Shown here one piece after another: positions 40,043-52,248 of a stretch of DNA of 52,700 nucleotides. The first letter of the stretch is position 1, and every line of letters begins with the position of its first letter. A program made the translations under genes and the position numbers. The notes beneath the pieces are model-generated. The model was not told the DNA's origin. It did no database searches and saw only the letters and a program-made list of their open reading frames with translations. The DNA comes from a bacterium (GTDB lineage Bacteria > CLD3 > SB21): contig JABWCP010000039.1 in the NCBI GenBank assembly GCA_013360215.1, positions 1 through 52,700 on the forward strand. Direction: 5' to 3'.

Positions 40043-40120
40043 GGGCAATTAGCTCAGTTGGTTCAGAGCGTTCGCTTCACACGCGAAAGGTCACTGGTTC
40101 GAATCCAGTATTGCCCACCA
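40043..40120 (+). tRNA. tRNA-Val (anticodon CAC)
   Basis: Acceptor stem GGGCAAT/ATTGCCC, anticodon stem TTCGC/GCGAA with loop TT-CAC-AC, T arm ACTGG-TTCGAAT-CCAGT, encoded CCA. Confidence 0.96.
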
Positions 40121-40182
40121 ATTCTTAAACATATTTCTATATATTTCTTTAGACGCGAAAGGCCATCCCGCCTGAAGCGGGA

Positions 40183-40207
40183 TATTGCCCACCAATTCTT
40201 AAACATA
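40183..40207 (+). repeat. 25-bp direct repeat of the tRNA 3' end and flank (att-like)
   Basis: TATTGCCCACCAATTCTTAAACATA is identical at 40109-40133 and 40183-40207. Confidence 0.9.
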
Positions 40208-40440: not shown

Positions 40441-43197
40441 TTGCCTAAATCCATTTCCGAAGCTGAAACCCGTTATTCCCTGATCGATCCCGATCTTAAA
40501 AAAGCCGGATGGAATCTGTCCGACCGGTCGCAGGTGGGGTTTGAAATTCCGGTCGACCGATACGACGGTAAGCTGGAAGAGGGGATCACCGACTATTGCC
40601 TCTACCACGCCAACGGCGAAGTTCTGGCCGTCGTGGAAGCCAAGCGAACCAGCCGCGATGCCCGCGTAGGGCAGAAGCAGGTTGAAGATTACGTCACTAA
40701 GATCGCTAAAACCCAATCCTTCCGACCGTTTGCCTTTATGGCCAATGGCACGGATATCTTCTTCTGGGATACCGAGGAATCAGCACCGCGCCACGTTGCC
40801 GGGTTCTTTTCACGTGAGAATCTCGAACGCCTGCTCTGGATCAAACAAAACCGCATTCCGCTAAGCACGATTCAGATAAAACAATCCATCGTTGACCGCG
40901 CGTATCAGGCGGAAGCAATTCGCCGCATCTCCGAGACCATCGAATTAAAGAAAAAACGTAAAGCCCTGCTTGTCATGGCTACGGGAACGGGCAAAACGCG
41001 CACAACGATGGCCCTGATCGACGTATTTCTGCAGGCCCGCGCCGCTCAGAGGGTTCTGTTCCTCGCTGACCGTGATGCCTTGGTGCAACAGGCCATGACG
41101 GACGGACTCAAACGCCATCTGCCCAACGAAGCCCGCGGACGTATACGAACTTACGACCTCGACAAAACCAAAAGGGTCTTCGTATCCACGCTGCAGACTT
41201 TGGAGATCTGTTTCAAGGAATTCACACCCGGTGATTTCGATCTGATCATTACCGACGAATGCCATCGCTCGATATACAATAAATTCACCGACGTATTGGC
41301 CTATTTCGATGCCGTTCAGATAGGCCTTACGGCTACTCCGGCGCAATTCATCGACCGCGATACATTCAAATTCTTCGATTGCGAAAATAACGCCCCGACC
41401 TTCCTGTATTCCTACGAGGATGCCGTCAAAGAAGAATATCTGGTAGACTACAACGTCTATTCCGCACAGACCAAATTCCAGCGCAAAGGCATCAAAGGCG
41501 TGGACCTGAGCGAGGAGGAACAAAACGCCCTGCGCGAGCGCGGCATTGATCCGGAGGACATCAATTACGAAGGCACCGACCTGGAACGCAAAGTGACCAA
41601 CCGCGACACCCTGCGGAAACAGATCGAGGAATTCATGGAAGTCTGTCACAAAGATTCCACCGGCCAGCTTCCGGGCAAGTCTATCGTCTTTGCCATCACG
41701 CAGGATCACGCCATGCGCATTGCGGAGGAATTCAACAAAATGTATCCCGAACATCAGGGGCGGGTGGTGCAGGTGATCACCAGCAAGATGGAACGCACGC
41801 GCGAACTGATCGATGCCTTCAAGAAAAACGACATGCCGCGCATAGCGATCTCCGTGGACATGCTCGACACGGGCATCGACGTGCCGGAGGTCGTGAATCT
41901 GGCCTTCATGAAGCCGGTCAATTCGCAGATCAAATTCTGGCAGATGATCGGACGCGGCACGCGCCCGCACGAAGCCTGTCAAAACTATGCCTGGCTGCCC
42001 AATAGCCGCAAAGAGAGTTTCCTCATCGTGGATTTCTGGGAGAATTTCGAACACTTCGAGATGATGCCCAAAGACGACAAAGGCCCTTCGCAGGTGCCCG
42101 TGCTCGTCACGATATTCCATACTCGCCTTCAGAAACTTCAGTTTCTTCTGGGCGACCAGTCTTCCGCCGATCTCAAACGCATCGTGCAGGACGTACGCGC
42201 GGACATTGCCAGGATTCCAACCGATTCTTTTACCGTAAAGAGATCCATGAGCGACCTGAGGCAGGTCACGGACGATGATTTCTGGGCTTATCTGACGGAA
42301 GACAAACTCGAACTGCTCCGTCTCAGGATCGCGCCCTTGCTCCGGTTCGTCACCGGAGTCAATCCCAAAGAAGCCTTTTTCATCAGCAAGATGGAACGTG
42401 CGGAACTGTTTCTTCTGCAGAAAAAAGACTTATCCGCGCTCATGGAATCCATTCGTGAAGACGTAGCACGTCTGCCGTCATCACTGCCGCAGGTAAAAGC
42501 GGTCGAAGAACACCGCCAAAATATATTAGCCAATAAATTCTGGACCGAACTCACGCTTGAACGTCTTGACACAGCCAAAAAAGCCCTCGCCCCGGTGATG
42601 AAACTGGCCGAAGACATCAAAACCGATCCCATCGAACTCGGCCTCGACGACATCATCGATTCCCGCCGGTGGATCATTCTGCGCGACAAGACCGGAAAGC
42701 AAAAGATCATGATCGAGGAATACAAAAAGCAGGTCGAGGAGAAGATCCTTGAACTGGCCGAAAAACATCCGACGATCAAAAAGCTCAAAGCCGGTGAAAC
42801 CATCACGGCAGGCGATCTGGAAGACTTAGACGATACACTTGAAAAAGAACTGATCCATCTCGGCCTTGACGAAGAAAATATTCTCAAAGCTTTCGGCGTG
42901 CGCGTAGGGAATCTCGTGGATTTTCTCAAACATATCCTGCACCTGGAGTCGCTTCCGACCTACGCATCCATCGTGCAAAGGTCATTCGATGCCTTTATTC
43001 TGGAACATAATTACAACGCCGATCAGTCGCGTTTTCTTCGTGTCGTGCAAAGCGTATTTCTGCAAAGACGCAAACTGGAACTGGCCGATCTGTATGAGGA
43101 ACCGTTTACGAATCTTGGAATGAATGCGGTGGAGAAGTTATTTGGGAAAGAGGAAGTGGATGAATTGATTATGTTAACAAGAAGATTAGTTGCTTGA
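40441..43197 (+). CDS. hsdR: Type I restriction enzyme R subunit (EcoAI/EcoEI-like)
   Basis: SEAETR, DY..VVEAKR nuclease motif, MATGTGKT, DECHRS, GLTATP, DMLDTGID, QMIGRGTR; TTG start. Confidence 0.93.
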   Translation: MPKSISEAETRYSLIDPDLKKAGWNLSDRSQVGFEIPVDRYDGKLEEGITDYCLYHANGEVLAVVEAKRTSRDARVGQKQVEDYVTKIAKTQSFRPFAFMANGTDIFFWDTEESAPRHVAGFFSRENLERLLWIKQNRIPLSTIQIKQSIVDRAYQAEAIRRISETIELKKKRKALLVMATGTGKTRTTMALIDVFLQARAAQRVLFLADRDALVQQAMTDGLKRHLPNEARGRIRTYDLDKTKRVFVSTLQTLEICFKEFTPGDFDLIITDECHRSIYNKFTDVLAYFDAVQIGLTATPAQFIDRDTFKFFDCENNAPTFLYSYEDAVKEEYLVDYNVYSAQTKFQRKGIKGVDLSEEEQNALRERGIDPEDINYEGTDLERKVTNRDTLRKQIEEFMEVCHKDSTGQLPGKSIVFAITQDHAMRIAEEFNKMYPEHQGRVVQVITSKMERTRELIDAFKKNDMPRIAISVDMLDTGIDVPEVVNLAFMKPVNSQIKFWQMIGRGTRPHEACQNYAWLPNSRKESFLIVDFWENFEHFEMMPKDDKGPSQVPVLVTIFHTRLQKLQFLLGDQSSADLKRIVQDVRADIARIPTDSFTVKRSMSDLRQVTDDDFWAYLTEDKLELLRLRIAPLLRFVTGVNPKEAFFISKMERAELFLLQKKDLSALMESIREDVARLPSSLPQVKAVEEHRQNILANKFWTELTLERLDTAKKALAPVMKLAEDIKTDPIELGLDDIIDSRRWIILRDKTGKQKIMIEEYKKQVEEKILELAEKHPTIKKLKAGETITAGDLEDLDDTLEKELIHLGLDEENILKAFGVRVGNLVDFLKHILHLESLPTYASIVQRSFDAFILEHNYNADQSRFLRVVQSVFLQRRKLELADLYEEPFTNLGMNAVEKLFGKEEVDELIMLTRRLVA

Positions 43198-43283
43198 AGA
43201 TGGATGTAAAGAACTTTTTCGTGATATATAAATCATTGTTCTAATCTATTTGGAAAGACATTTGCAAAATAATGGGAGGTAAC

Positions 43284-46200
43284 ATGCGTTTTTTTGTATT
43301 CATATCCACAACTTGTCATAAAGATGCTCAAGAAAAGGGCTTTGCGAAGGAAATTGAGAAGCTGAGAATAAAGGTTGAAGCCGATCAATCAGTAGACTCA
43401 TGGGAAGATTTTTTGCCAAGTCCTATCATACAAAAGAAATTAGGGGGTTATAGGTTAGTCGCAGAAAAGCGAATCGTTGATGACTCCACAATGGCGATAG
43501 TATTTCTTACTATTTTGAAAAAGGGAACTCCGAAATATGAGAAATTTCATGGTGCAGAAGTCGAGTATTGTGAAAACCTTAAACCATCAAATTTACAAGT
43601 TACCGATGAAATCAGGGCTCGCATTAGAGAAGAAAATTCTGTACCAATTGTTCCTGAGCCGAATGACATAGAATACAGTTATCTTTTTGATCAGGGCAAT
43701 AGCCTGGATTTTGACGATGGCATTGTGTTCGAAAGTCATGAATGGGTCCAACGTATCTCCAAGGGTGAATACCAACAATATCTAACAGATTTCTACAATA
43801 TTGCTAGTGGCATATTTGGGGATGCGACAGACACATTAAAGATCAGCTCTTCAACTAGTGCACAGATCTTATTCCGTTACTTTCCTGAATCAAAAATATT
43901 GTTTCTGATTTCACCGATTACAAAAGCCAATCAATCAGAAATTCAGAAGATTCAGGAACAATTTGCGTCTATTTTAATGAATTCAACGGTGTCCCAAGAC
44001 GAATTATTGAGACAAAGCGGAAGATCTTATCCTGCATTAGTACTCGCTGATGATTTTGAAGTGTGGAGTGCCATTGAGTCTAACAAAGAGGGCAATTTGG
44101 CCCTTTCTCCAGAGGAATCAGTTATTCTAGAGTCCGTTTTCTTGTCAAAGAGACCCAAAGAAAAGAGATTTCCCCTGTTCATTAATGGAAGACCGGGTAG
44201 CGGTAAGTCTACGGTCTTACATTATATGTTTGCAGAGTTTTTTTTTCGACATATTCAGAAGTCGAAAGATCAGAGGCTAAAGCGGCCGCCCCTGTATCTC
44301 ACATATAATCCGAGACTACTGGAAAACGCCCGAGCCGCTGTGGTCAAAATAGTGACATCAAACCACAAATTTGCCGCAGAAAAAAAAGTATTTACGGAGC
44401 AGGAATTGGAGGAAACCCTCGATCAGGCATTTGAAGTTTTTCATGATTTTCTTAAAAAATCTCTGCCATCAGAAAAGTCAAACTTATTCCGTAAAGATAA
44501 AAGGATTGATTTTGGAGAGTTTAAGAAAAGATGGTCAGACCATATGAGGCGTGATTTCCGGAATGAACTAAAAAAAATCAACGCCGAATTAGCATGGCAT
44601 GTTATTAGAACATACATCAAAGGCATGCGTGACGATGAGGATAACTATTTTGACAAGGATTCCTATTTTGATCTTCCGGAAAAGAGAAAAACAGTCAGTC
44701 AGAAGACATTTGACTTAATTTATGATGAATGTTGGGAAGGTTGGTATTATCCATTATGCAATAAATCGCAATACTGGGATGATCAGGATCTGACGCGCAA
44801 GGTTCTTGATGAGGTTGGGGCAGATTATTTCCAATATCCAGCCGTTTTTTGTGATGAGGCACAAGATTTTACTCGGATTGAATTGGAACTTATTTTCAGG
44901 ATGAATCTTTTTTCACGACGACGGACATTACCGGATCAGATAAAAAATATCGCATTTTCATTTGCAGGTGACCCATTCCAGACTCTCAACCCAACAGGAT
45001 TCAATTGGGAATCAGTTTCATCAGCTTTTTATGAAAGAATAGTTCAACATTTGGATCCTTCTGGATCAGGGCGGCTTCAATTCAATCCTCAAGAACTGAA
45101 GAACAGTTACCGTTCGACACGTCACATCGTAGGAGTGTGCAATCTCATACTCTTAGTTCGCGGCATTCTCTTTAATATACCTAAGCTGCATCCACAAGTA
45201 TCTTGGTTTGAAAGGGATGCTTCAGTTCCGGAATTTTATGATATACAAAGTCAGCATTGTGTTGATCGACTAAGAGAGGAGGAGAGCATTACGGTTATCT
45301 TACCCTGTCAAGAAGATGAAGAATTAGACTACATCGAGAAAGACAGTATTTTAAAGGAATTGTCGGTTTCCGGAGACCGTCCAAGAACCTTCTTAAGTCC
45401 AATGGCTGCCAAAGGTCAAGAATTCCCTCGTGTTGTTATCTATAAGTTCGGAGATGATTGTGTTCGCAACTACCCAACTCTGTTAGACCCACTCTCTTCC
45501 GTAAAGCCTCAGGAACAGGACTTGGATAGGCTATTGCCCATGCAATATTTTATGAATCGTCTATATGTGGCAGCCAGCAGGGCTCAGAAGCGATTGATCA
45601 TTGTTGATACAGAAGATGGCATTAGCAAATTCTGGAATAATGCAATGATGACTAACCCCGATGCTCTTATTGATAAGTATAGAACCATGTTTGATCCGAA
45701 TAATCCATGGGGGACAAAAAATATCTGTCTCTGTCAGCCGGGCGTCCAGACCACAAAAGATAGAAAATGGTCCGAAGATCGGGAAAACCCTGAAGAGCTC
45801 GCAGAAGTAGCGAAGAACTTAAAGGAGGACGGAAGAAGAACCAAGAGTTCATATAAGTTGCGTCTAGCATCAGCAAATTTTGAGCGCGCTTCTTTACCTG
45901 ATGAAGCTAAAAGATGTATGGCATTGTGTTATGAAATAGAAAATAAGTATACTGAAGCAGCTAAATTGTATCAAGAACAATCCTTACACACAGAAGCTCT
46001 TGGGTGCTATTGGCAGGGGGGCTTGTTCAGTAATGTTGTAAAAAATGTTGCGTTTTCGGAGTATCCAGAGTACCGAGCGTCAGATTTTATGCTGGGAGTG
46101 CAAAGTGGATCAGACAGTATACAGTTCCTTGATTTTATTTCGAATGAAATGCGCGGCCCCAGGAAAAATAATATAATTGACAATCCGACATGGATTAACG

Positions 46201-47399
46201 TTTTTGAGAAACTGATAGCAGCGCTGGCGAAAATGGACAACACAACTGATGGTAACGATGCATATAGAAAAGTTATGGCAATTAGTCAAGAAGGTCTCCC
46301 GACGTCACAATACTTGGAGCTTGGAAAACTCGCATGCAAAGCAGGGCTTTATGAGGAAGCATTGAAACAGTTCAATAAAATCACGCCCAAACCGGTTGAT
46401 GCACCCGAATACGTTTTTGTAAAATCACAACTTTCGCCATTTCCGGAAAGTATTGAATGGCTGCACAAACAAAAAAATGGTAGTGAAATAATAACCCAAT
46501 GGAAAACGCATTCACTTTTGCTTGAGGAAAAATATGAAACAATAGTCTACAATGCTATTATTGAAAAGCAGGCGTTTGACCTCCTTCCTCAATTCATAGA
46601 GTTTCATCCTAAGTATGACTATTTTTTTAAAGCGCTTAGTGTTTATGAAAAGGAACAAGATGATATATCGTACGAGTTAATGGCGCATCGGCTGATTTGT
46701 CATTACGTAGATGAAAACCGATGGACAGAAGTGTTGAAGTTCTTGAACAGTAATATCAAGATAAAAAAGTTGGATTTAGGTATAAAGAATCGATTTGTTT
46801 TTGAATTTGCAAAATCATCACCGAAACTCAATGAAGAAAACGAAAAAGCCATCGCAGATTTTATTGAGAAGTGGTATATCAAACACCCAGAATCAATTTT
46901 TAGTATAAAGATAGTTGGGACGTCAGTTGAGAAATCAAATCGTATGATTCTTTCTCTTGAATTTTATGAAAATATTTGGAAGCACAAGAAATATGGATCA
47001 GAAGCAGATCTGGAATTTGCAAGAAGACGTTGGTTGCGGTGTAAAAATAGGCAAATAGAACGTGGCAAATCCACATCTCGTGGAATTGAGGACTTTGAAA
47101 AATACTCTGCGGAGTGGGGCTATTCTATTGATGACATCCCGCAATATGAAGATCTTGATGGTATATCTTTTTCAGACGAGTATAAAGTTCCAGTGCAGCA
47201 GCAAAAAGCACGAGCAAGTACGCGGGTCGAGATTAGAAAGGATACGATTTCTGAAGAGCAGCGACTGGCTATCAAGGATCTTTATGAAATTGGTTATTCA
47301 GTAGAAAAAATACGACATATATTTCCGACGGTGTCCAATAACACGATCGAAATGATAATTGACAGTAACATGACTGAAGCGCAGAACAAACACAAGTAA
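43284..47399 (+). CDS. Large SF1 (UvrD-like) helicase/ATPase with RelE-like N-terminus, TPR-like region and possible C-terminal HTH
   Basis: LSPEE, GRPGSGKST, DEAQD, AGDPFQTL, SYRS, AKGQEF, RLYVAASRA; GGAGGT RBS before ATG 43284. Confidence 0.8.
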   Translation: MRFFVFISTTCHKDAQEKGFAKEIEKLRIKVEADQSVDSWEDFLPSPIIQKKLGGYRLVAEKRIVDDSTMAIVFLTILKKGTPKYEKFHGAEVEYCENLKPSNLQVTDEIRARIREENSVPIVPEPNDIEYSYLFDQGNSLDFDDGIVFESHEWVQRISKGEYQQYLTDFYNIASGIFGDATDTLKISSSTSAQILFRYFPESKILFLISPITKANQSEIQKIQEQFASILMNSTVSQDELLRQSGRSYPALVLADDFEVWSAIESNKEGNLALSPEESVILESVFLSKRPKEKRFPLFINGRPGSGKSTVLHYMFAEFFFRHIQKSKDQRLKRPPLYLTYNPRLLENARAAVVKIVTSNHKFAAEKKVFTEQELEETLDQAFEVFHDFLKKSLPSEKSNLFRKDKRIDFGEFKKRWSDHMRRDFRNELKKINAELAWHVIRTYIKGMRDDEDNYFDKDSYFDLPEKRKTVSQKTFDLIYDECWEGWYYPLCNKSQYWDDQDLTRKVLDEVGADYFQYPAVFCDEAQDFTRIELELIFRMNLFSRRRTLPDQIKNIAFSFAGDPFQTLNPTGFNWESVSSAFYERIVQHLDPSGSGRLQFNPQELKNSYRSTRHIVGVCNLILLVRGILFNIPKLHPQVSWFERDASVPEFYDIQSQHCVDRLREEESITVILPCQEDEELDYIEKDSILKELSVSGDRPRTFLSPMAAKGQEFPRVVIYKFGDDCVRNYPTLLDPLSSVKPQEQDLDRLLPMQYFMNRLYVAASRAQKRLIIVDTEDGISKFWNNAMMTNPDALIDKYRTMFDPNNPWGTKNICLCQPGVQTTKDRKWSEDRENPEELAEVAKNLKEDGRRTKSSYKLRLASANFERASLPDEAKRCMALCYEIENKYTEAAKLYQEQSLHTEALGCYWQGGLFSNVVKNVAFSEYPEYRASDFMLGVQSGSDSIQFLDFISNEMRGPRKNNIIDNPTWINVFEKLIAALAKMDNTTDGNDAYRKVMAISQEGLPTSQYLELGKLACKAGLYEEALKQFNKITPKPVDAPEYVFVKSQLSPFPESIEWLHKQKNGSEIITQWKTHSLLLEEKYETIVYNAIIEKQAFDLLPQFIEFHPKYDYFFKALSVYEKEQDDISYELMAHRLICHYVDENRWTEVLKFLNSNIKIKKLDLGIKNRFVFEFAKSSPKLNEENEKAIADFIEKWYIKHPESIFSIKIVGTSVEKSNRMILSLEFYENIWKHKKYGSEADLEFARRRWLRCKNRQIERGKSTSRGIEDFEKYSAEWGYSIDDIPQYEDLDGISFSDEYKVPVQQQKARASTRVEIRKDTISEEQRLAIKDLYEIGYSVEKIRHIFPTVSNNTIEMIIDSNMTEAQNKHK

Positions 47400-47402
47400 A
47401 TC

Positions 47403-48899
47403 ATGCTCACAAACCCTGACTTAAAATCAAAAATCGACTCCCTCTGGGACAAATTCTGGTCCGGTGGAATAGCCAATCCGATTACAGCCATTGAACAAAT
47501 GTCCTATCTGATCTTTCTGAAAAGACTGGAAGACATGGACAATGCCCGCGCCGCCGCGGCTAAGCGGAGAAATGAAACGTACCGCTCGGTATTTCACGGA
47601 AATAAGGAATGCAGATGGTCGCACTGGAGCCAATTGCCCGGCGATCAAATGCTCAAGCATGTGCGCGATAAGGTGTTCGATTTCCTGCGGGAAGTGGGCG
47701 GGGAGACGAGCACATTCACACAGCACATGGAAGACGCCGTGTTTGTCATTCCGAAAGCGTCGCTCTTGCAGGAAGCGGTCAAGATCATCGACGATATGCA
47801 CATTTCGGAACAAAACGTGGACGTGCAGGGCGATCTGTATGAGTATTTGTTGAGCCAGCTTACCACGTCCGGCAAGAACGGCCAATTCCGCACTCCGCGG
47901 CATATCATTCGTATGATCACGAAACTCGTCGATCCGAAGATCGGCCAGCGTATTTGCGATCCGGCTTGCGGCACGGGCGGGTTTCTTGTCGCCGCCTATG
48001 AACAAATTCTCGAAGAAAACACGACCCCTGACCTGATCGAACGCGACGAAGACGGCAAGGCGCATCACCTGATCGGCGATAAGATCGCGGATAAGAAACT
48101 GATGCAATTCCTGAAAAGCCGCGCGCTCACCGGATACGATTTCGATTCCACGATGGTGCGTATCGGCGCGATGAACCTGATGCTGCACGGCATTGACAAT
48201 CCGCGCTGCGTTTACACCGATACCATGTCGAAGGCATTTACCGAAAAATCGGAATACGACGTTATTTTAGCCAATCCGCCATTCAAAGGCTCGATCGACA
48301 AGAGCGACATCAATGAGCGTTTTACCACCAGCACGACCAAGACGGAACTGCTTTTCATCGAATTGATCTACGGCCTGCTGAAAAACGGCGGCAAGGCGGG
48401 CGTGATCGTGCCGGACGGCGTGTTATTCGGGACGAGCAATGCGCATGTGGATACCCGCAAGATCATCGTGGATAAGTGCAAGCTCGAAGGGGTGATCTCT
48501 ATGCCTTCGGGCGTATTCAAACCGTATGCGGGCGTTTCCACAGCGGTGCTGATATTCCAGAAGGGCGGCACGACGAAGAACGTCTGGTTTTACGATATGG
48601 AAGCCGACGGATTTTCACTCGACGATAAACGTCAGCGTGTTGAGGCCAATGATATTCCGGACATTCTGAAGAGTTGGGGATTGAGAAATTCGGAATCACC
48701 TATCGACAATCAAAAATTCTTCAAAGTGACCGTCTCCGATATCCGAGCAAATAAATACGATCTTTCCATTTCACGATACAAAGAGATCGTGCACACGGAA
48801 ATCGAATACGAAAAGCCGGATGTGATCATGAATAAGATCGTCGAATTGGAAAAAGGGATCGCGATGGATGTGGAAGAGATTAGGGAGATGATGAAGTGA
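47403..48899 (+). CDS. hsdM: Type I R-M N6-adenine methyltransferase
   Basis: LWDKFWSGG, GQFRTPRHI, DPACGTGGF, NPPF, VPDGVLF. Confidence 0.96.
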   Translation: MLTNPDLKSKIDSLWDKFWSGGIANPITAIEQMSYLIFLKRLEDMDNARAAAAKRRNETYRSVFHGNKECRWSHWSQLPGDQMLKHVRDKVFDFLREVGGETSTFTQHMEDAVFVIPKASLLQEAVKIIDDMHISEQNVDVQGDLYEYLLSQLTTSGKNGQFRTPRHIIRMITKLVDPKIGQRICDPACGTGGFLVAAYEQILEENTTPDLIERDEDGKAHHLIGDKIADKKLMQFLKSRALTGYDFDSTMVRIGAMNLMLHGIDNPRCVYTDTMSKAFTEKSEYDVILANPPFKGSIDKSDINERFTTSTTKTELLFIELIYGLLKNGGKAGVIVPDGVLFGTSNAHVDTRKIIVDKCKLEGVISMPSGVFKPYAGVSTAVLIFQKGGTTKNVWFYDMEADGFSLDDKRQRVEANDIPDILKSWGLRNSESPIDNQKFFKVTVSDIRANKYDLSISRYKEIVHTEIEYEKPDVIMNKIVELEKGIAMDVEEIREMMK

Positions 48900-50113
48900 C
48901 TACTGTTCAATACTATCCCAAAGTCAATTTACGCGATCATGCTTTGTTAATAAGGGGTATTACGTTCAAGCCGCATCAAAAAACTGATATTCCTTCTGAT
49001 GATGCAATAGTGTGCTTACGTACTGCCAATGTCCAATCTAATGTTGATTGGAGAAGTCTTATCTATATTCCAAAGGCACTAGTAAAAAGGACTGATAAGT
49101 TATTGCGTGAAAAAGACATTCTAATATCAACAGCCAATAGCAATAATTTGGTTGGCAAGTGTTGCTTGATTCGCTCACTTCAAGTCCCGGCAACACTTGG
49201 GGGATTCATTTCCGTTATTCGCGCAAATGGTGAGAGCCTTGACGCGTCGTATCTTTATCATTATTTGAATTCTGACGAAATTCAAGCGCTTCTCAGAAGT
49301 ATTTCCAGGCAAACTACAAATATTTCGAACCTACCGACAGACCAATTGTTGAATGTTCAAATCCCTCTCCCTCCTCTTCCTATCCAGAAGCGCATCGCCG
49401 TGATACTTGAGAAAGCCGACGCCGCGCGCGAAAAGCGTCGCCAAACCATCGAGCTCACAGAAAAATTTCTCCAGTCCGCCTTCCTCGAAATGTTCGGCGA
49501 TCCGGTGACAAATCCGAAGGGGTGGGAAAAGGAGACCATGGATGAGCTGTGTGATAGAATTACAGATGGTACGCACGACACTCCCAAACGCCTAACACAA
49601 GGAGTGAAGTTCATAACTGGAAAGAATATTCGCCCACATAGGATTGACTTCAGCAATCTGGACTTTGTTTCGCAAGATGTTCATGAGGAAATCTATAGGA
49701 GGTGTAATCCTATATTCGGAGATGTTCTTTACACAAATATTGGAGTCAATCTTGGAACCGCCGTCATGAACAACCTGCATGAAGAATTCAGCATGAAGAA
49801 TGTTGCGTTGCTCAAACATAATCGTCAGAAACTGGAATCTCGATTTCTTGAATACATTCTCAATGATCAAAGAATGAAAAAGGCTCTTCTCAAGCGCTTT
49901 TCAATTGGTGGAGCTCAATCATTTTTAAGCTTAGGTAACATTAAAATGATTGAAATACCAGTTCCCCCTCTCTCCTTACAGCAAAAATTCGCCGCGATGG
50001 TCGAGAAAGTCGAAGCCATGCGCTTCAGGCAGCGCGCGTCGGAGCAGGAATTGGAAAATTTGTTTCACAGTTTGATGCAGCAGGCGTTTAAGGGGGAGTT
50101 GGTACTTGCTTGA
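48896..50113 (+). CDS. hsdS: Type I R-M specificity subunit
   Basis: Two TRDs separated by IPLPPLPIQKRI..FLEMFGDPVTNPKGW; distal PVPPLSLQQKF..AFKGEL; overlaps the hsdM stop. Confidence 0.95.
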   Translation: MTTVQYYPKVNLRDHALLIRGITFKPHQKTDIPSDDAIVCLRTANVQSNVDWRSLIYIPKALVKRTDKLLREKDILISTANSNNLVGKCCLIRSLQVPATLGGFISVIRANGESLDASYLYHYLNSDEIQALLRSISRQTTNISNLPTDQLLNVQIPLPPLPIQKRIAVILEKADAAREKRRQTIELTEKFLQSAFLEMFGDPVTNPKGWEKETMDELCDRITDGTHDTPKRLTQGVKFITGKNIRPHRIDFSNLDFVSQDVHEEIYRRCNPIFGDVLYTNIGVNLGTAVMNNLHEEFSMKNVALLKHNRQKLESRFLEYILNDQRMKKALLKRFSIGGAQSFLSLGNIKMIEIPVPPLSLQQKFAAMVEKVEAMRFRQRASEQELENLFHSLMQQAFKGELVLA

Positions 50114-50185: not shown

Positions 50186-51265
50186 ATGATGAAGACATCA
50201 ATAGTCGTTCTTTGTCTCGCAATAGCATCTTGCATGCCTTCCACTGCGACTCATCAAGGCTCTTTCTTTCAGAAGAAGGCCGGAAAGAGAAAAATCGTCA
50301 TTTTCTATCATGGTATTTTTGGCGATGCTCGCACAACGTGGGGTAAGACGGATAAGGCATGGCCAATGTTAATTTCTTCTGATCCCCAGTTTGAAGATTT
50401 TGATGTTTTCGTAGTTGACTATGACTCTCCATACTTGTCCAAAACATCAAATATAGAAGAAGTCTCGGTTGCCAAGAAACAAGAATTGCAAACTAAGGGT
50501 ATTCTGCGTGACTATGATCAAGTTCATATTATTGCTCACAGCATGGGGGGAATTATTGCACAGCGAATTTGTGTGCTTTTAAGGGCAGAGACTACACCTG
50601 ACTATTCAAAAATAAAATCTATTACACTGCTTTCAACCCCTAGTCATGGAGCAACTATTGCATATTTGACATCTTGGTTAAGCTCAAATCCACAGTTGAA
50701 AGATCTCAAATCTTCTGATATGAACACTCTATTACAGGCTTATTATAATTCTTGGAAGCTACTGGCTGATAGCAGGGTGAAGTCTGGGTTACTTCAACCT
50801 AGGATTAATGTTCTCTATGAAACTAAACCAATGATTACTATCAAAATTGTCGAGAGAACATATACTCTAACGGCTTTCGATGGTTTACCAATCGCTCTGG
50901 ACAGGAATCATATTGACATGGCGAAGCCAGACGGATATGAGGATAGATTGTATGAAACGGTCCGATCTTTCATCCAAGAGGCTGTGGAACCACCAGAGGA
51001 AGAGGTGGGCATGTTCATAGTTGAGGGGATGAGCTTCGATGATGCCGTGAATGGAATATTGCGAGGTACTGGGTTCGCTCCACGTTACATTTCTTGTGAT
51101 ACAATCAAAAATAAAAAAATTGTTGCGGGTGAGTTAAAGGCTCGGTCAATTGAGAGGTTCATTGCGTTGCTTGGGCAGCGCCTTATAGGAAGTAACAGAA
51201 TTCAACTAAAAATCCAAAAAAACCAGGAGCAAAGTCTATATGACATCAGTTGCGACGAAAATTAA
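50186..51265 (+). CDS. Lipoprotein alpha/beta hydrolase (PGAP1/DUF676-like)
   Basis: Lipobox IAS-C; FYHGIFG, AHSMGG nucleophile elbow, STPSHG, NHIDMAKP. Confidence 0.8.
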   Translation: MMKTSIVVLCLAIASCMPSTATHQGSFFQKKAGKRKIVIFYHGIFGDARTTWGKTDKAWPMLISSDPQFEDFDVFVVDYDSPYLSKTSNIEEVSVAKKQELQTKGILRDYDQVHIIAHSMGGIIAQRICVLLRAETTPDYSKIKSITLLSTPSHGATIAYLTSWLSSNPQLKDLKSSDMNTLLQAYYNSWKLLADSRVKSGLLQPRINVLYETKPMITIKIVERTYTLTAFDGLPIALDRNHIDMAKPDGYEDRLYETVRSFIQEAVEPPEEEVGMFIVEGMSFDDAVNGILRGTGFAPRYISCDTIKNKKIVAGELKARSIERFIALLGQRLIGSNRIQLKIQKNQEQSLYDISCDEN

Positions 51266-51881
51266 ATTCGGATTGTACTTGCTTATTTTCCCTTCCTTTG
51301 GAATCAATTCGCAAACCAAAACTTCTTGTGGAACACAACCCTTAGAAGTTAGATGCGAAAAAAATCAGGTACCGGTTTGTAGGAGGAATTACGCAGAATG
51401 CTATACTCCCAAAGGGATTACTAAGGAACAAAAGTGTGCAGATCTTCTGAGTCATGTAACTGAAAAGGCAATCACGACAGAAAACCTGTCAGAATATTGG
51501 AAACTCATTGAGGATGGTGAGTATGGAACAGGAGACAACAAAGTCAGCTTTGTAATACCCGATGACTGGAAAACGATTGTTGGAAATTCTCAAACAACTG
51601 ATGGGAAGGCGCAGGACAAGCAACAAGACATATTAAAGAAAACGCTTGACGAGTTAGATGGCAAGATAAAGAACTTGGAAAACGACGGAAGCATACAAGC
51701 GGTTGTTTCGCAAATGAACGCGAATGACAAAACGGAGTATAACAAGAAAATCCAAGCCATGAGGGATGCAATATTGGAAGCGCGAAATAACCTTAACCAG
51801 GGGAGTGCAAAAGAAAAAATAACAAAACAACAAAAAGAACTCGAAAACTTAAAGATTTGGATCGATGGCAAACGGCCGTGA
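51240..51881 (+). CDS. Hypothetical exported protein (Cys-rich N-terminus, coiled-coil C-terminus)
   Basis: 213-aa ORF, hydrophobic N-terminus, five Cys, heptad-like tail; overlaps the upstream gene by 26 bp. Confidence 0.65.
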   Translation: MTSVATKIKFGLYLLIFPSFGINSQTKTSCGTQPLEVRCEKNQVPVCRRNYAECYTPKGITKEQKCADLLSHVTEKAITTENLSEYWKLIEDGEYGTGDNKVSFVIPDDWKTIVGNSQTTDGKAQDKQQDILKKTLDELDGKIKNLENDGSIQAVVSQMNANDKTEYNKKIQAMRDAILEARNNLNQGSAKEKITKQQKELENLKIWIDGKRP

Positions 51882-51955
51882 CAATTAGGATTGTCCGCAT
51901 TATGCAGATGTGTTTTCAAATTCTTGAAAATATCCTTATAGTACTTAATACGTTA

Positions 51956-52033
51956 CGCGCGTCGGAGCTGGAATTGGAAAATTTGTTTCAGAGTTTAATG
52001 CAGAGAGCGTTTAAGGTGAAGTTGGTGAGTTAA
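51956..52033 (+). pseudogene. Orphan hsdS 3' tail, copy 2
   Basis: Encodes RASELELENLFQSLMQRAFKVKLVS*; 63/72 nt identical to hsdS 50033-50104 by hand count. Confidence 0.9.
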
Positions 52034-52132: not shown

Positions 52133-52137
52133 CGACT

Positions 52138-52248
52138 GTCGAGAAAGTTGAAGCCATGCGTACGAAGCAGCGCGCGTCGGAGCAGGAATTGGATTTGCTT
52201 TTTCAAGCATTAATGCAAAGAGCATTTAAAGGAGAATTGGTAAGTTGA
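52138..52248 (+). pseudogene. Orphan hsdS 3' tail, copy 3
   Basis: Encodes VEKVEAMRTKQRASEQELDLLFQALMQRAFKGELVS*; 80/105 nt identical to hsdS 50000-50104 by hand count. Confidence 0.9.

Follow-up and report, generated by a model that had tools for sequence, protein, structure and literature searches.

A RelE-fold helicase gene in an exchangeable hsdR-hsdM gap is a likely single-protein phage defense

A large gene occupies a gap that carries defense cargo in related genomes

The first 52,700 nucleotides (nt) of contig JABWCP010000039.1 (GenBank assembly GCA_013360215.1; GTDB lineage Bacteria, CLD3, SB21), hereafter the window, carry a type I restriction-modification (R-M) operon in which hsdR and hsdM are separated by a gene of 1371 amino acids (aa). 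The gene probably has a role of some kind in anti-phage defense. We consider it likely to be an unnamed single-protein defense system, since it joins a predicted RNA-cutting toxin domain, a helicase, and a likely repeat sensor within a gap that is used for anti-phage genes. The contents of this gap in related genomes constitute the strongest evidence for a defense role.

Close orthologs of hsdM, 78-93% identical, were found in 5 of 40 relatives of the host, and all five carry a different, mostly AT-rich cargo of defense type upstream of hsdM, with PADLOC matches in four of them (Table 1). An hsdR ortholog lies on the far side of the cargo in L179, L180, and L181, its 3' end alone is present in L182, and none was seen in L178, where the contig ends. 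Similarity to the window breaks off at the hsdR stop and restarts at the hsdM start, and between its cargo blocks L179 has additional, incomplete copies of the hsdR 3' end and the hsdM 5' end; because of these features, cargo was likely exchanged by homologous recombination between hsdR and hsdM. The gene is likely to have entered the operon as swappable cargo that is independent of the R-M enzyme, and as the gap holds different cargo in relatives, position within it says little about a functional tie to R-M.

In this bacterial group, the hsdR-hsdM gap readily offers additional candidates. The L179 gap contains two genes, of 850 and 287 aa (L179:9155-12557, minus strand), that have no Pfam or PADLOC match and are further defense candidates, and in the L178 gap a 4-HFC-P synthase-like gene lies together with a methyltransferase and two unknown genes upstream of Hachiman (L178:12509-17024, minus strand). 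A TGT-glycosylase-QueC-TIR cluster is present both in the L179 gap (L179:16130-18928) and directly downstream of a Nitrospirae member of the gene family described here (L003:5409-8320), which points to a shared pool of defense cargo.

A sequence-only reading of the window had described a gene of ~1370 aa, visibly AT-richer than its surroundings, that splits the operon and ends 3 nt before hsdM, and this description held. The open reading frame (ORF) at 43284-47399 on the plus strand is intact, its TAA stop ends at 47399 with the hsdM ATG following at 47403, and its GC content is 0.392 (GC3 0.362) versus 0.517 for hsdR, 0.506 for hsdM, and 0.448 for the whole genome. An alternative in-frame ATG at 43272 would extend the product to 1375 aa; the alignments of most close homologs begin at residue 1 of the 43284 start. 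Contigs of RNA libraries from two studies (X17 and X18, which are one sample, and X20) overlie parts of the gene, hsdR, hsdM, and hsdS, although such contigs by themselves are no proof of transcription and their coverage gaps carry no meaning; the junction of the gene with hsdM is bridged by none of the listed X17, X18, and X20 pieces. Promoter and terminator scans gave numbers at chance level (14 versus 17.3 and 10 versus 10.9, respectively).

The N-terminal domain adopts a predicted RelE fold

The sequence-only reading had labeled the protein "RelE-like" without giving a reason, and structure prediction now bears this out. Residues 1 to 295, modeled from a 96-row alignment, yielded two alpha/beta domains with a pLDDT of 88 and a pTM of 0.63; a single-sequence fold of aa 1-297 was unusable (pLDDT 41). 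All 38 PDB rows listed by Foldseek for the alignment-based model were toxins from the RelE/ParE superfamily or Cami1, with a best E value of 1.5e-3 and no row at E 0.001. The top VIA-align match was HigB2 (Z 9.0, rmsd 3.2, 100 aligned residues), followed by RelE (Z 8.6 and 8.5); these matches span model residues 1 to ~110, and 21 of the 22 top rows are placed in the RelE/ParE superfamily by title. Comparison of the predicted structure supports the assignment of aa 1-95 to this superfamily. Searches of the N-terminal region against Pfam, PDB sequences, and the ESM Atlas returned nothing useful.

Among 95 homologs, R57, R/K80, and Y85 are present in all and K50 in 87. A second, partly overlapping set of 97 gave 96 for R57, 96 for R/K80, 92 for Y85, and 77 for K50. 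In a profile alignment to Escherichia coli RelE, R57, R/K80, and Y85 fall on R61, R81, and Y87, and position 50 falls near K52; the three residues are thus the likely counterparts of the RelE catalytic set. Four points weigh against reading the domain of the window protein as an active, mRNA-cleaving RelE. First, the window copy has K80 where most homologs have arginine, and Q50 where most have lysine. Second, the profile alignment scored no better than shuffles, so that the residue mapping is likely rather than proven, being backed by the structural match at the level of the fold. Third, the RelE/ParE fold also includes gyrase inhibitors, as stated in the available part of PMC11980606. Fourth, a RelE1 that cuts rRNA is named in the title of PMC12620021. 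With regard to the first point, the accessible text of PMC2807027 and PMC12620021 indicates that R61, R81, and Y87 of RelE are needed but that K52A or K54A is tolerated, and since the latter substitutions have little effect, Q50 need not inactivate the window copy.

For the second alpha/beta domain (aa 145-266), structure and profile comparisons from the model of aa 1-295 assigned no fold match. A second, dead copy of RelE was considered for this domain, as the order of strands and helices is the same, but gained no support, since profile alignments with either the first domain or RelE scored at the level of shuffles.

The helicase core has intact motifs and is followed by a likely TPR-like region

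All SF1 motifs quoted in the sequence-only reading were found in the translation, in the order GRPGSGKST (residue 302), DEAQD (524), GDPFQ (562), SYR (608), KGQEF (710), and YVAASRA (761). Residues K308, D524, E525, Q527, D563, Q566, R610, K710, and R766 are invariant in 97 of 97 homologs. By these signatures the central region is assigned as an SF1 (UvrD-like) helicase, with motifs I to VI in order and carrying their catalytic residues. Motifs IV and V are separated by ~100 residues, compared to 123 in ArmD, a RelE-like helicase discussed below, and roughly 280 in UvrD/PcrA; given this short span, subdomain 2B is likely nearly absent.

SF1 helicases carry an adenine-binding glutamine in a segment that reads LSPEE in the window protein. 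The glutamate at position 278 (aa 277-278, nt 44112-44117) is present in 97 of 97 homologs, and the aligned segment of ArmD has Gln. The altered segment may change nucleotide preference.

The repeat region had been called TPR-like in the sequence-only reading, and this part of the description stands with less support than the rest: the Pfam TPR_2 match has an E value of 0.0012, below the cut-off, and the family profile matches CDC23, IFT122, and IFT144 at E values of 0.001 to 0.006. At the C terminus, 6 of 11 tails match helix-turn-helix (HTH)-type Pfam families weakly (E 0.01 to 0.04), and the C-terminal sequence of three longer members inspected differs from the likely HTH of the window subclade. 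Overall, the proposed layout of toxin domain, ATPase, and repeats in a single polypeptide is supported.

Pfam returned UvrD_C, the SLFN-g3 helicase, and TPR_2 for the window protein, all below threshold, and NCBIfam returned no match. PADLOC 2.0 (2023 library, searched with the window protein only) gave no full-length match, and the single hit, to mad8 over aa 301-348 alone, was of Walker A level (E 2e-4). The gene is thus absent from PADLOC apart from this motif-level match.

The family is widespread but patchy

Using residues 1-900 as a query, 1114 relatives were recovered among 7987 scored candidates, the best being 43-44% identical over the whole query, and a profile built from just the first 295 residues recovered 926 clusters at 50% identity. 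At least 253 confirmed stretches were found in 185,579 GTDB species genomes and 264 in metagenomes; from these, 80 loci from the GTDB species set and 80 from metagenomes were kept for analysis (160 in total). Record titles include Chloroflexota, Nitrospirae, Proteobacteria, cyanobacteria, Verrucomicrobia, Bacteroidota, Planctomycetes, and one archaeon. In the 40 host relatives, 14 of them from the same family, there was no full-length match and only short ones at E 2.7e-5 or weaker. Plasmids gave 6 matches, distant and partial, and no viral contig matched the six peptide patterns used. The layout is stable, as 85 of 110 long homologs chosen by their C-terminal part also match the profile of aa 1-95. 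The family is unnamed, patchy across phyla, and has neither a PADLOC model nor a fixed partner gene, the commonest neighbor family reaching at most 12 of the 160 loci. With ~900 clusters at 50% identity, it represents a sizeable hole in defense annotation. Long members P0141, P0257, P0310, P0316, P0317, and P0321 carry an extra ABC/SMC-type ATPase domain according to precomputed Pfam assignments.

Neighborhoods of homologs argue for defense and against a dedicated R-M guard

Removal of near duplicates reduced the 160 loci to 139, and scoring was confined to the 56 of these flanked by 3 kb or more on each side; two locus pairs remained near-identical on the tree. The two nearest ORFs of at least 130 aa on each side were compared with Pfam at an E value of 1e-12, and R-M, BREX, Hma, Abi, and CRISPR families were counted; ambiguous loci (L024, L053, L072, L102, L116, L148, and L157) were scored negative. 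Defense neighbors were present at 18 of 56 loci (genomes, 10/35; metagenomes, 8/21), compared to 1 of 26 control sites (Fisher P = 0.003 overall). The controls were set by coordinate in the same genomes, where 26 of the 35 requested sites existed. A PADLOC scan of hand-picked loci identified DISARM (L081 and L153), Hma (L057), Dnd/Pbe (L148), Tiamat (L083 and L120), and type IIG R-M (L121). Together with the defense cargo in the same gap of five relatives, this enrichment makes a defense role likely, as the sequence-only reading had proposed.

Several observations pull in the opposite direction. In the 26 matched genomes the difference was 6/26 versus 1/26 (P = 0.05), and the list of defense families was set after the matches were known, with kin that are not independent. 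The sequence-only reading had named mostly housekeeping surroundings of homologs as a finding that would speak against it, and this is partly what was seen, as 38 of 56 loci have no listed defense family among their four nearest genes. Defense neighbors occur at 2 of 10 loci on a cyanobacteria-rich branch of the tree, and the close relatives L002, L005, L014, and L086 are surrounded by ordinary or unknown genes. A role as an enzyme of stress response or ribosome quality, or as a selfish addiction gene gathering in variable regions, would fit the two thirds of loci without a defense neighbor, the housekeeping context common to four loci of a Planktothrix-type group, and the RNA-library contigs over the gene, which are consistent with routine transcription. 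We nevertheless regard such a non-defense function as unlikely, considering the lack of a full-length match in the 40 relatives, the small number of stretches spread across many phyla, the low GC content relative to the flanks, and the known defense systems that otherwise occupy the gap. Across the family, gene GC is below flank GC at 66 of 82 loci with at least 5 kb of flank.

The sequence-only reading had further suggested that the protein guards the R-M system. In such a scheme the type I R-M complex would silence the protein, and a phage anti-restriction protein would release it, as for PrrC, RloC, or Ronin. Guards of this type exist (10.1101/2023.04.06.535777, available part), the window gene sits 3 nt before hsdM within the operon, and other members adjoin type I hsd genes (L041, L071, L091, and L093) or type III mod/res (L018, L095, and L139). 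Type I R-M adjoins only 4 of 56 loci, however, and the gap takes unrelated cargo in the five relatives, so a dedicated guard is improbable; homologs also adjoin DISARM, Hma, BREX, Tiamat, and Dnd-type genes.

At L018, L095, L102, and L103, related members form part of a longer block that also contains UvrD and a PD-(D/E)xK nuclease. In some of these blocks, a D12 methylase together with NurA-HerA is found upstream, and type III mod/res follows downstream.

The gene is a stand-alone, TPR-extended variant of known RelE-helicase fusions

RelE-UvrD fusions are already known, and the window gene represents a stand-alone, TPR-extended variant and not a kind of its own. Anantharaman and Aravind reportedly noted a RelE/ParE-SF1 helicase fusion (Z5902) in 2003. 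The closest described protein is ArmD, a RelE-like domain joined to a GajB/UvrD-like helicase, which according to the available part of PMC12458937 is needed for ARMADA II defense and is inactivated by a Walker A mutation. We took ECs_5264 as ArmD because K266 and D454 of that report sit at its Walker motifs. Both proteins begin with a RelE-like domain and continue with an SF1 helicase, in which Walker A lies ~260-300 aa from the N terminus and motifs IV and V are a short span apart, and both have a defense context. In contrast to the 1371-aa window protein, ArmD has 704 aa, lacks a TPR region, and is part of a four-gene system in which all genes are needed. Alignment to ArmD along the length was not obtained; the Walker A region alone aligned (HHalign probability 41, 73 columns; best BLASTP E value 0.14). 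Nor does an armA-D set accompany the family: the 160 loci and the window contain no ArmB match, partial SNF2 matches in 5, and one partial ArmC match, and the host genome has a single partial ArmA match on another contig.

A RelE-like helicase is also mentioned, in one sentence of the available text, for neighborhoods of Tiamat type I-K (bioRxiv 10.64898/2026.09.30.754977). As in the family described here, a RelE-like domain is fused to a helicase near a defense gene, and TmtA lies directly upstream of family members at L083 and L120; type I-K, as described there, also includes a methylase. Compared by description only, the Tiamat protein may belong to this family or may be ArmD-like.

The fold and likely catalytic residues of aa 1-95 are shared with RelE/HigB toxins and with Cami1 (CARF-RelE; Z 7.4), in which a RelE domain within a larger protein inhibits translation in defense (bioRxiv 10.64898/2026.09.30.754977, available part). 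Unlike these toxins, the window protein has no antitoxin gene and no CARF domain, and control would fall to the helicase and TPR parts. A small same-strand ORF lies within 150 nt upstream at 12 of 97 loci, in a scan limited to ORFs of at least 70 aa, and these ORFs share no common family; a conserved adjacent antitoxin gene was thus not found.

PrrC and RloC are ABC-ATPase-HEPN anticodon nucleases, and they and Ronin, like the window protein, are toxin-type genes inside type I R-M operons. The window protein differs from PrrC and RloC in having an SF1 helicase and a RelE fold with no ABC ATPase or HEPN domain, as well as in its rare linkage to R-M.

The E. coli plasmid protein WP_187655799.1, an "ankyrin repeat" helicase of 970 aa (L177:5530-8442), has a homologous core (HHalign probability 98.8, 433 columns) with the same short span between motifs IV and V. 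Its C terminus consists of ankyrin repeats, and its N terminus looks RelE-like by eye with an alignment not above shuffles; it may represent a sister family, likewise of helicase-repeat proteins that stand alone.

TRANK1 is a eukaryotic TPR/ankyrin/UvrD-like protein that combines a helicase with helical repeats, and the sequence-only reading had likened the window protein to it. This likeness was not recovered in two weak searches made without a TRANK1 sequence: none was seen among 2350 candidates, and the 120 of 135 matches listed were all of bacterial type. The literature covered, mostly outside subscription journals, describes no stand-alone RelE-helicase-TPR protein, and in the available Gerdes 2025 text, "helicase," "UvrD," and "TPR" are absent from the main text and "helicase" and "UvrD" from three supplements.

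A model for triggered translation arrest

There is about an even chance that the protein acts by triggered RNA cleavage that halts translation, with the RelE domain as effector, the helicase as ATP-driven control, and the repeats as sensor, all in one chain. According to this model, the RelE domain would be an active RNase, and, because no antitoxin travels with the gene, the rest of the chain is proposed to hold it off in cis. The trigger could be either a phage protein that the TPR region binds or phage nucleic acid that the helicase binds, and an ATP-dependent change would then free the RelE domain. The freed domain would cleave mRNA in the ribosomal A site, leading to growth arrest of the infected cell. 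Certainty falls in the order of defense gene, RNase effector, cis hold, trigger, and A-site target. A docking prediction of aa 1-116 onto aa 268-1150 scored 0.14 against a mark of 0.32 and speaks neither way. More tentatively, the protein could be a one-gene immune receptor resembling NLRs, distributed over many phyla as exchangeable cargo, in which an SF1 helicase rather than a STAND ATPase links a TPR sensor to a RelE ribonuclease as the switch, and which shuts off translation on encountering a phage trigger.

One finding on ARMADA II counts against a model of growth arrest: the system gave protection with no indication that cells died or shut down their metabolism, as reported in the available part of PMC12458937, and abortive infection is for this reason not to be assumed. 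The same result would suit a direct attack on invader nucleic acid with no arrest of the cell, in which the helicase is loaded onto phage DNA or RNA and the RelE-fold domain either acts locally on phage transcripts, by binding or cutting them, or no longer has a catalytic role. The lack of a conserved antitoxin would also be easier to understand if the protein were not a general toxin. Such an attack has a low probability in our view, however, as the Arg/Arg/Tyr set is near-invariant, as expected for a catalytic site, and neither a DNase domain nor a methylase partner is present for self/non-self discrimination.

RelE-helicase fusions have so far been known as one part of multi-gene systems. 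A stand-alone family with an added repeat region and near-invariant RelE residues allows the question of how a helicase keeps an RNA toxin under control with no antitoxin to be posed in its simplest form.

Other features of the window

Coordinates of the features are collected in Table 1.

Table 1. Features of the window and cargo of the hsdR-hsdM gap in five relatives
Feature	Coordinates	Strand	Remarks
Whole gene: RelE fold, alpha/beta domain, SF1 helicase, TPR-like region, likely HTH	43284..47399	+	
Shine-Dalgarno-like GGAGG	43275..43279	+	4 nt 5' of ATG 43284
RelE/HigB-fold domain, aa 1-95	43284..43568	+	Predicted catalytic R57, K80, Y85; model, Foldseek, VIA, conservation
Second alpha/beta domain, aa 145-266	43716..44081	+	Conserved E150, W154, R247-x-Y249-P250, W261
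SF1 (UvrD-like) helicase core, aa ~271-785	44094..45638	+	
Walker A, GRPGSGKST	44187..44213	+	K308 in 97/97 homologs
Walker B, DEAQD	44853..44867	+	D524, E525, Q527 in 97/97 homologs
TPR-like region, aa ~835-1290	45786..47153	+	Weak matches; both ends conserved, middle variable
Likely C-terminal HTH	47247..47357	+	Weak; short subclade of the window
hsdR, EcoEI-like type I restriction endonuclease	40441..43197	+	Library scores; left flank of exchangeable gap
hsdM, type I methyltransferase	47403..48899	+	Library scores; right flank of gap
hsdS, type I specificity subunit	48896..50113	+	Library scores
L178 gap			Hachiman hamAB (PADLOC E 1e-90, 1e-219) and others
L179 gap			TGT/QueC/glycosylase, ThsB-like TIR, SLATT, TIR cluster; PDC-S11; two unknown genes
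L180 gap			992-aa NACHT protein (Pfam only)
L181 gap			GmrSD_N (NsnA-like) and HEPN
L182 gap			804-aa NACHT protein (PDC-S60-like)

A tRNA-Val gene region (40043-40207) marks the left edge of the R-M island. A 25-nt stretch made up of the 3' end of the tRNA and the bases after it recurs exactly at 40183-40207, which resembles an attachment-site scar. Downstream of hsdS, after a second AT-rich cargo block (50186-51881), the hsdS 3' end recurs in two decaying copies (51918-52027 and 52133-52242), a scar of the same kind as in the hsdR-hsdM gap. The block encodes an alpha/beta hydrolase with a weak match to LmuA (E 7e-9) and a 213-aa protein, both of which begin with a sequence that is signal-peptide-like by eye.

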